Source: a virus (taxonomy: Duplodnaviria > Heunggongvirae > Uroviricota > Caudoviricetes). Taken from it: a stretch of DNA of 17,813 nucleotides. Position 1 is the first letter of the stretch, and every line of letters starts with the position of its first letter. The stretch lies in the IMG/VR virus record IMGVR_UViG_2529292871_000023. One strand, 5' to 3'. Positions 2,171 to 4,023 of the stretch are shown one piece after another. The position numbers were made by a program, and so were the translations under genes. Under the pieces are notes generated by a model. It was not told where the DNA came from. It saw nothing but the letters and a program-made list of their open reading frames with translations, and made no database searches.

Positions 2171-2419
2171 TTAATTGGGATCTGCCGTCTCGCCAGTTTC
2201 ATTATCGCTATGATGCTGATTGCCGCCAGTGTTCTCCTTGTGTGGATGTTCAGCGCCTTCCATTTCCTCCGGATCATCTTCCTGAACTTCAACCTGATAC
2301 TCTTCATCGAATGTTTCCTGGTATGTTGCGTCGCCCATCACCGCGCCACAATCAGGGCAGTTGCCGCCGCCGGTCTGACCGCAGGCGGTGCAGACTTTTT
2401 CCACTTCCTGTTGCGCCAC
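2171..2419 (-). CDS. Small acidic zinc-ribbon protein (CxxC...CxxC), GTG start; possibly the true C-terminal domain of the upstream large gene
   Basis: Motif [16 protein letters not shown]. The same frame stays open upstream through an acidic Pro/Glu-rich linker ([26 protein letters not shown]), which looks more protein-like than the basic low-complexity tail of the 2338..3471 frame. Confidence 0.35.
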
Positions 2420-3471
2420 TGGTTCAGGCTGTTTCGTTTCTGGCTCGTTTTGTAACGCATTTGGGCTGTTTTGTTCCGTTTCTGCTGGTTCTGGTTCACA
2501 GAATCGCGGGTTTCAATCCCCTTAACCCATTTCGGATCATTCGGGTCACTAATCCCTTCAACAAATTCACCACGTGATGCAGCAAGCAACTTATCGGCGT
2601 CAGGCTGGCTGATATTGGCTGCCTGCATAATTTTGTTTACTTCGTCAGCGGTAACTTTTATCGGCTCTGGTTGTTCTGAATCTTCAGCGGTATCTACATT
2701 TTGCGGTAAGCCCGTGTATGTGCCATTTTTTCGGGCAAAATATTCTTCTTTTGTGATTTCAGTGGCGCCAGCAGCCAGTGCCTTATCCAGACCAGAAAGT
2801 TTGTTTGCGCGACCGTATTTTTCTCCGTCCTTATCTGCGAAGAGGAAATAGAACGGCCCCTCACGCTCTACAGATGGTTCAGCTTCCACTTTGCATTCGG
2901 TTTTTTCGTTGTCCGGAATTGCCGTTTCCACTGCATCAGTTTCTGGTACTGGCGACGAGAGAGTATCAGTTGCGCTCTGATTTCTTCCTTCATCTTCAAA
3001 CACGCCCTTTGTAGTCAGGTATTCAGTAATGTATTTGTTCAGTGCCACAGGGTCTTTGTGAATGTCGATCGGACGCTCACGGACAAGGCCAAAAATAGTC
3101 TGGCGGTCGTAGCGAAGGGCATCAGGCTGTTTGCGCATTGATGCCGAGATACGCTTCCAGTCTTCGCGGTCGTTGTCGATAACTTCTTTTTTTGCCCAGC
3201 GATGGATGCTGCCGTCAATGTTTCCGGCATCCACATCACTAGGCCAGAGAGCGTAGGCCAGTTCGTCATCCAGTGTTTTCCATGTCTGCTTGTATTCGCG
3301 ATGAATGGCAGCAATGACCGGGCTGATTTTTCCTGTTGAATTTTCAGTGGACTGTTGATTGGCTCTGGCGCGTGGCGAGATCAACAACAGACGTGTATTT
3401 TCCGGTTTCCTTGCGTTCACCTTCGCGACGTTTTTTTCCAGATGCGCATCTCTGCCTGAATTTCGGGCCAT
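2338..3471 (-). CDS. Hypothetical early-region phage protein, distal segment of a larger frame-disrupted gene (possibly YdfE-like by position)
   Basis: 377-aa ORF with no recognisable catalytic motif. It is in the same frame as 3736..4023 and is joined to the middle segment by a one-base change in the T7 run at 3431-3437. Confidence 0.5.
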
Positions 3472-3941
3472 TTGGCACCAGGCTTACATTTATGCTTAAC
3501 CCACCCGATGGCATGCAGCTTAAGCTCCGGATACATGGCGTTAACTTCTGGCATTTTCATCAACGCTTCAACGATATGTCCGTCGAATGTTGCCATGTCT
3601 TCCTGCAACAATTCCTGTGCGCTAATCACCATATCAACGGTGATGTTTTCACATGTGTCGAACTTAACCATGACAGCGTTCTGTACTTCAGGGGCCAGCT
3701 TGTCAAAAGTGACGTTCATCGGATCGGATTCAGTCTCAACCGGGACAAAGGAAGCAGACCCCCTCATCCCAGCGGTTTTCCTGCATATATTCAGCATCCC
3801 AGGAATCGAGGGCAGGGCGGGGTATACCGGGTTTATCCTCGCAAACAAGAAATTTATAAGCGCAGTCCTGAGCAGCCGGATAATGTTCCAGGAATTGCCA
3901 GTGAAATTTTGCGCGGGCGCGACGTTCATCACCGGCTTCAA
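3417..3941 (-). CDS. Middle segment of the same frame-disrupted large early gene; only the part from about 3765 down to 3417 looks coding in this frame
   Basis: Frame reads ...SASFVPVETESDPMNVTFDKLAPEVQNAVMVKFD... and continues the 3736..4023 frame if one C is removed from the C5 run at 3759-3763. Confidence 0.4.
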   Translation of the reverse strand: MKPVMNVAPAQNFTGNSWNIIRLLRTALINFLFARINPVYPALPSIPGMLNICRKTAGMRGSASFVPVETESDPMNVTFDKLAPEVQNAVMVKFDTCENITVDMVISAQELLQEDMATFDGHIVEALMKMPEVNAMYPELKLHAIGWVKHKCKPGAKWPEIQAEMRIWKKTSRR

Positions 3942-4023
3942 TGGCAGTGGCTACAGCGACTGCACCTTCTTCCTTTATTGCCTGTTCGTCCGGAATGGCG
4001 GCGCAAATAAAGACTTTACTCAT
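3736..4023 (-). CDS. N-terminal segment of the large early-region gene (hypothetical)
   Basis: ORF begins MSKVFICAAIPDEQ with a GAGG ribosome-binding site about 8 nt upstream. The frame terminates just after the C5 run, where the adjacent frame continues as protein-like sequence. Confidence 0.5.
   Translation of the reverse strand: MSKVFICAAIPDEQAIKEEGAVAVATAIEAGDERRARAKFHWQFLEHYPAAQDCAYKFLVCEDKPGIPRPALDSWDAEYMQENRWDEGVCFLCPG

Follow-up and report, generated by a model that had tools for sequence, protein, structure and literature searches.

An interrupted prophage exonuclease gene in the draft genome of Escherichia coli O55:H7 USDA 5905 probably reflects the blending of two near-identical copies during assembly

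The window analyzed here is the whole 17,813-nucleotide (nt) stretch of viral DNA held as IMG/VR record IMGVR_UViG_2529292871_000023, and our subject is a large gene in its early region that appears there in several overlapping open reading frames (ORFs). Four ORFs, all on the minus strand, were found at 3736..4023 (95 amino acids, aa), 3417..3941 (174 aa), 2338..3471 (377 aa) and 2171..2419 (82 aa), exactly where a preliminary description made from the letters alone had placed them. A DnaQ-like ORF (1576..2307, 243 aa) lies next to them, also on the minus strand. The window is contig AEUB01000098.1 of assembly GCA_000187365.2, the 2011 draft of E. coli O55:H7 USDA 5905. The ORF products EFX27088, EFX27091 and EFX27092 are named "[Escherichia coli O55:H7 str. 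USDA 5905]" by NCBI, and its sister accessions in the 2011 draft-genome set are AETY, AETZ and AEUA.

The preliminary description regarded the four ORFs as fragments of one gene, and this was confirmed. With an intact homologue as the tblastn query, they were recovered as colinear pieces of a single gene in three frames, matching residues 1-87, 89-270, 217-544, 521-622 and 625-823 in order. Residues 1-87, 89-~196, ~197-216, 217-~512, 521-622 and 625-823 fell into frames 0, +1, +2, 0, +2 and 0, respectively. The intact product has 823 aa, or 816 aa in some strains. These alignments indicate that a single gene extends along the minus strand from 4023 down to 1576, with the DnaQ-like exonuclease as its C-terminal domain.

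Six segments of this gene could be followed on the minus strand. Segment 1 (3763..4023; residues 1-87) begins in frame 0 with the native ATG (4023), covers the YdfE_N domain and was 100% identical to the query over aa 1-87. Segment 2 (3438..3758; residues ~88-196) lies inside ORF 3417..3941 in frame +1 and covers the helical YdfE_C domain; the AlphaFold2 confidence (predicted local distance difference test, pLDDT) was >90 across the corresponding residues 101-205. The two domain names come from precomputed Pfam annotations, with PF27430 (YdfE_N) on ORF 3736..4023 and PF27432 (YdfE_C) on the called ORF of segment 2; our own Pfam search found neither. Segment 3 (3374..3436; residues ~197-216) is a basic linker in frame +2, and tblastn placed aa 186-216 at 3466..3374 in frame -2. 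ORF 2338..3471 reads this linker wrongly, its first ~33 codons being out of frame because of a third +1 insertion at 3373. Segment 4 (2485..3372; residues 217 to ~512) is again in frame 0, with a helical domain at 241-345, a small beta/alpha domain at 385-435 and the first part of a module shared with RecE. Segment 5 (2181..2483; residues ~521-622) runs in frame +2, that of ORF 2171..2419, and encodes a CxxC...CxxC zinc ribbon (at ~2348-2392) followed by an acidic tail. Segment 6 (1576..2176; residues ~625-823 and the stop codon) encodes a DEDDh 3'-5' exonuclease domain resembling Rv2179c and DexA of phage T4, with 99% over aa 625-823 in tblastn. The gene has its true C-terminus in this exonuclease domain.

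Intact relatives of the gene are widespread. Window positions 2100-4100 were matched in 4,793 of 5,426 complete E. coli genomes, and each of the full-length matches listed fell under one coding sequence annotated as "exonuclease" or "3'-5' exonuclease". The matches in the phage collection likewise fell under one coding sequence, named "exonuclease VIII" or "exodeoxyribonuclease VIII". In strain MS6198 and phage Tritos, a single coding sequence of 2472 base pairs (bp; 823 aa) extends from the end of ydfD to the start of xis and includes the DnaQ-like region; one intact coding sequence, of 2472 or 2451 bp, takes this place in these two and in USDA5905, CB9615 and Sakai. A protein search returned at least 7,998 clusters (90% identity), of which the 120 listed were 798-831 aa long and all carried PF27430, PF27432 and PF16473; family members are given as single genes of 816-831 aa. 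The called ORFs of the window carry YdfE_N, YdfE_C and Rv2179c-like domains in that same order (precomputed Pfam), and the PHROG 2082 profile covers residues 1-823 of the 823 in the intact homologue. Thousands of homologues were full length, and none was split at the boundaries seen in the window.

The surroundings of the gene are also conserved. In the window it is flanked by dicB (4307..4492) and ydfD (4119..4307) on one side and by xis (1265..1511) and int (1..1284) on the other, and the order dicB-ydfD-exonuclease-xis-int of this early-left operon was the same in five annotated relatives. In other lambdoid phages, this slot holds exo-bet-gam or recET. The locus had been equated with the position of ydfE in the Qin prophage, correctly so: K-12 ydfE, an annotated pseudogene, matches family residues 1-256 at 99% and is then interrupted by IS2E. 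From profile, length and position, the underlying gene evidently belongs to a known and very common prophage family.

The top match of the whole window among complete genomes was CP039837, the finished genome of USDA 5905 itself, at only 98.4% identity. The differences were patchy, many 500-bp bins having zero substitutions and others 20-35. The unique chromosomal flank on the draft contig (6,265 bp) was 100.000% identical to CP039837 without gaps. The ompW prophage of CP039837 has intact copies of xis, rusA and the 823-aa exonuclease gene, and exactly these three are broken in the window, where the remaining genes are full length. The uninterrupted ORF of the PHROG 2082 family is lost from the window copy through six indels; since CP039837, from the same strain, retains it, this loss belongs to the record and not to the gene. 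Like the identical flank, a 22-nt deletion at ~8183 bears out the strain identity: it frameshifts a DnaT-like replication gene in both the draft window and finished USDA5905, and CB9615 does not have it. This pseudogene is genuine for USDA 5905.

Finished USDA5905 carries two intact 823-aa copies of the exonuclease gene that are ~95% identical. One is in the ompW prophage (the resident copy), and the other is in a Qin-like prophage at rspB (L013 26572..29043). A three-way alignment contained 311 variable columns, in which the window agreed with the resident copy 166 times, with the Qin-like copy 110 times and with neither 35 times. Among these 35 columns, 32 were located at the six indels and three at the ends of the alignment. 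All of the substitutions that had seemed private to the window were Qin-like alleles. The 3' half of the window gene follows the non-resident allele with scattered resident-type sites, and switches between the two copies are frequent, even at neighbouring informative sites such as 3760/3758 and 1617/1616.

The alignment points to the Qin-like prophage of USDA5905 itself (L013) as the donor of the non-resident bases. Other candidate donors were ruled out: the serU-prophage copy of CB9615 (L009) was only 85% identical, the Ep9 copy of CB9615 (L011) had 232 mismatches, and Sp9 of Sakai (L010) had 75 mismatches. A natural mosaic allele had also been considered, the DnaQ patch being 99.5% identical to a common allele, and this was superseded by the three-way comparison. 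The prophage at the rspB site differs between O55:H7 strains (L013 26572..29043 in USDA5905 vs L011 39209..41680 in CB9615). The element in USDA5905 resembles K-12 Qin (dicA/dicC, ydfA-D, relBE, cspB/F/I), and that in CB9615 is another lambdoid phage, Ep9, whose exonuclease allele is divergent.

Alignment with the intact copies defined the six indels on the minus strand as +1, +1, +1, -22, -3 and -2. At the first (3758..3763, +1), GAGGGGGTCTGC in the window stands against GAGGGGGCTGC in the resident copy and GAGGAGTCTGC in the Qin-like copy; beside the C5/G5 run, resident GGGGG is spliced to Qin-type TCTGC with one base in excess. At the second (3431..3437, +1), the window has A7 (T7 on the plus strand) and both finished-genome copies have A6, as expected of a homopolymer overcall from A6 to A7. 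The third (3373..3373, +1) is an extra A, GCCACGCG vs GCC-CGCG, which neither genuine copy has. The preliminary description proposed to join the ORFs by single-base changes at a C5 run and a T7 run. Both breaks are indeed there, but three +1 insertions have to be corrected and the one at 3373 had been missed.

The remaining three indels are losses. At the fourth (2479..2484, -22), an imperfect direct repeat, CGGAACA...CGGAACA, has collapsed by one unit (21 nt), together with one base from an AA/TT pair; the 21-nt in-frame polymorphism also occurs naturally in CB9615. At the fifth (2209..2212, in-frame -3), resident-type CATCAT is spliced onto Qin-type AGCGATAATG three bases short. At the sixth (2177..2180, -2), resident-type GATCCC is spliced onto Qin-type AATTAAGGTG two bases short, and this brings the frame back to 0. 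Compared with both parents, four of the six indels are splices of wrong length or a collapsed repeat.

None of these lesions recurred in the ~3,900-4,700 other genomes with the region, and the exact 95-aa truncated product was found on a single contig, AEUB01000098.1. A genuine pseudogene should show its lesions again in independent sequencing, and the finished genome is without all six. The breaks are thus in the record and not in the organism. Resequencing had been advised as a check, and CP039837 supplies it: the gene is intact there, and the frameshifts are better regarded as assembly errors than as marks of a pseudogene. Homopolymer error of the 454 type as the sole cause was considered and rejected, as most lesions are outside homopolymers. 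Among the 14 runs of at least seven bases in the window, two were discrepant (1391 in xis and 3431).

Taken together, we consider it probable, at roughly 0.88, that the split into ORFs is an artefact of the draft assembly, in which two near-identical gene copies were blended, and that the gene is one member of a lambdoid-prophage exonuclease family. The assembler would have co-aligned reads of both paralogous copies and written the consensus column by column across them. Where the copies differ in a complex way, the consensus would have come out at a wrong length, and a homopolymer overcall and one stray base may have added two further frameshifts. Some points count against this explanation. 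The case for co-assembly comes from the pattern of the consensus, and a mosaic would likewise result if the two resident prophages had undergone gene conversion in the 2011 stock. The +1 at 3373 fits neither a homopolymer error nor a splice of both parents. The draft, from the 2011 work of Rump and colleagues, was reportedly produced on the 454 platform.

The most serious alternative is a real, strain-private pseudogene, in which the ompW-prophage copy of the 2011 stock would have received patches of the Qin-like copy by gene conversion and acquired frameshifts, the finished genome of 2019-20 representing another stock. Gene conversion with patchy mismatch repair should leave a two-copy mosaic as well, and genuine disruptions are known in this exonuclease family, including IS600 insertions in O157/O26-type genomes besides the IS2E insertion in K-12 ydfE. 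A stand-alone C-terminal ORF of 180 aa is moreover annotated on 165 contigs. However, such a pseudogene would have gathered six indels within 1.6 kb, none of them present in either parent, and would have switched between adjacent informative sites. Three of the indels coincide exactly with complex differences between the parents and leave hybrid sequence of the wrong length, which is not explained by homologous recombination or gene conversion. In addition, xis and rusA show similar blending and frameshifts, a tRNA-like element has compensating 1-nt indels, other patches of the window lack a close match anywhere, and the unique flank is free of errors. We therefore regard a genuine pseudogene as unlikely.

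The preliminary description had instead envisaged a protein of ~560-600 aa without a known function, with the acidic zinc-ribbon ORF as its C-terminus and the DnaQ-like exonuclease as a separate neighbouring gene. In its favour, ORF 2171..2419 ends in a stop of its own (2171), and the exonuclease ORF could start from an ATG at 2307. However, in every intact relative examined, one coding sequence free of internal stops joins the zinc ribbon and acidic tail to the DEDDh domain. By tblastn, the first ~42 codons of ORF 1576..2307 are the acidic tail of segment 5 read out of frame. The -2 lesion alone creates the stop at 2171; the zinc-ribbon ORF does belong to the gene, as suspected, but the frame resumes after that lesion and continues to the stop at 1576. 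The proposed length was likewise too short for the intact relatives. The full-length homologues already refute this model, which we hold to be very improbable. Least credible is programmed ribosomal frameshifting or transcriptional slippage that would join the ORFs in vivo at homopolymer runs, for although two breaks lie at or beside such runs (A7 and G5 on the coding strand), six separate events of differing size (-22 and -2 included) would be required, none of thousands of relatives needs a frameshift, both finished-genome copies of the same strain have A6 and are unshifted, and the intact colinear homologues already refute the model.

Signs of blending were also observed in other parts of the window. 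Between 4100 and 5950, the Qin-like copy was matched by 34 of 50 non-resident columns. The dicB-ydfC interval (4500..5950), where dicF is positioned in relatives, mixes resident and Qin-like alleles, and a cluster of sites at 4868-4902 agrees with neither of them, pointing to a contribution from a third paralogue. The xis gene (1265..1511) is frameshifted at 1391, with T7 vs T6 in the finished genome and a surrounding stretch without substitutions, and is read as a chimeric ORF of 108 aa (1185..1511; GenBank EFX27088); this lesion is most likely a homopolymer overcall. The rusA gene (13997..14367) is broken into two frames by the loss of 1 nt near 14078 and also has 6 nt inserted at 14331, within a divergent patch; RusA of the finished genome is intact with 121 aa. 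None of 8,602 places in complete E. coli genomes matched the stretch 15060..16000, with a tRNA cluster and a TerB pseudogene, at better than 97.0%. For the tRNA-like element in the middle (15324..15399), ARAGORN gave a broken anticodon loop in the window and tRNA-Lys(ttt) in the finished genome; its alignment is a hybrid of resident and other-prophage alleles with compensating 1-nt indels. The paa gene (10865..11623) encodes an AcfC-family adhesin, is prophage-borne and is identical to that of the finished genome; it is known as virulence-associated cargo of the ompW prophage.

If blending is the correct explanation, the GenBank entries EFX27089-EFX27093 and the frameshifted excisionase EFX27088 would not be real products, and the prophage part of AEUB01000098.1 would be unsuitable for analyses of alleles or pseudogenes. 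More generally, overlapping ORFs in the draft of an E. coli strain with several prophages need not mark a gene in decay and can instead be a blend of paralogous prophage genes. In the present case the blend is demonstrable at every base, since both parent copies are present in the finished genome of this strain.

The protein was described as lacking any recognizable nuclease motif, and this is contradicted by its C-terminal domain. The Rv2179c-like family PF16473 matched the C-terminal ~180 residues at E = 2e-67 and segment 6 at E = 3.8e-69; its bit score for window ORF 1576..2307 was 232, where the Pfam gathering score is 27. In the intact homologue, Rv2179c-like (residues 642-813) and RNase_T were the only C-terminal Pfam matches. 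The window translation contains the DEDDh motifs MIDLET, GANFD and HNALDD, the first two of which align with FIIDFET and MSFD of DexA. DexA (PDB 8kel) matched the domain by sequence (E = 1.5e-6) and by fold, with a Foldseek E-value of 1e-9 and a TM-score of 0.67-0.73 normalised to the target. The domain was modelled with AlphaFold2 pLDDT >90, and its fold matched DexA and then RNase T and the oligoribonucleases (Orn). AlphaFold gave confident domains at residues 1-100, 101-205, 241-345, 385-435 and 641-820, with disordered linkers between them. A library-wide search returned many stand-alone exonuclease relatives of ~185 aa, and relatives of the N-terminal part at 39-46% identity.

By analogy with DexA, the C-terminal domain may trim single-stranded nucleic acid from its 3' ends. 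The N-terminal region, which is large and non-catalytic, could tether, position or regulate the exonuclease domain in early-lytic processing of DNA ends. A literature search (YdfE; Rv2179c with phage) found no experimental work on the intact protein or its function.

The family is near-ubiquitous in E. coli prophages, and its common label "exonuclease VIII" invites comparison with RecE of the Rac prophage. Like RecE, it is a large protein of the early-left operon with a long non-catalytic N-terminal region, and the two share a module of ~150 aa: residues 474-621 (linker, Cys4 zinc ribbon and acidic tail) were 74% identical to RecE 471-611 by BLASTP. Residues 262-336 matched RecE 295-368 weakly. 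Unlike RecE, the exonuclease family protein has no PD-(D/E)XK 5'-3' nuclease domain, and BLASTP against RecE of Rac-SA53 gave no match to the C-terminal third of RecE. The NCBIfam RecE model NF007259 reached 289 bits against a cut-off of 1269 and matched only residues 453-625. Moreover, no recT was present beside the gene, xis being directly downstream in the window and in all annotated relatives, while recT follows recE in Rac. On these comparisons the protein is evidently not RecE. The name "exonuclease VIII" is misleading because the protein lacks the PD-(D/E)XK domain, scores below the RecE cut-off and has no recT downstream; a DexA-like 3'-5' exonuclease is indicated instead. Some relatives have swapped modules, combining a YdfE-like N-terminus with a PD-(D/E)XK C-terminus (P0141) or a RecE-type N-terminus (PF06630) with a DEDDh C-terminus (P0126 and P0136), and these modules therefore shuffle.

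The C-terminal domain has DEDDh motifs and a DnaQ fold like those of T4 DexA, Mycobacterium tuberculosis Rv2179c, RNase T and oligoribonuclease. However, these enzymes are stand-alone proteins of ~180-230 aa, whereas the domain here is fused behind ~640 residues. The closest likeness is with the PHROG 2082 family, whose members include ECs_1759 of Sakai Sp9, exoO of CB9615, TRITO_27 of phage Tritos and the ydfE remnant of K-12 Qin. The window gene is colinear with this family over 823 residues, shows 94-98% DNA identity and has the same domain order and position. It differs from the family only in the six indels of the window record.

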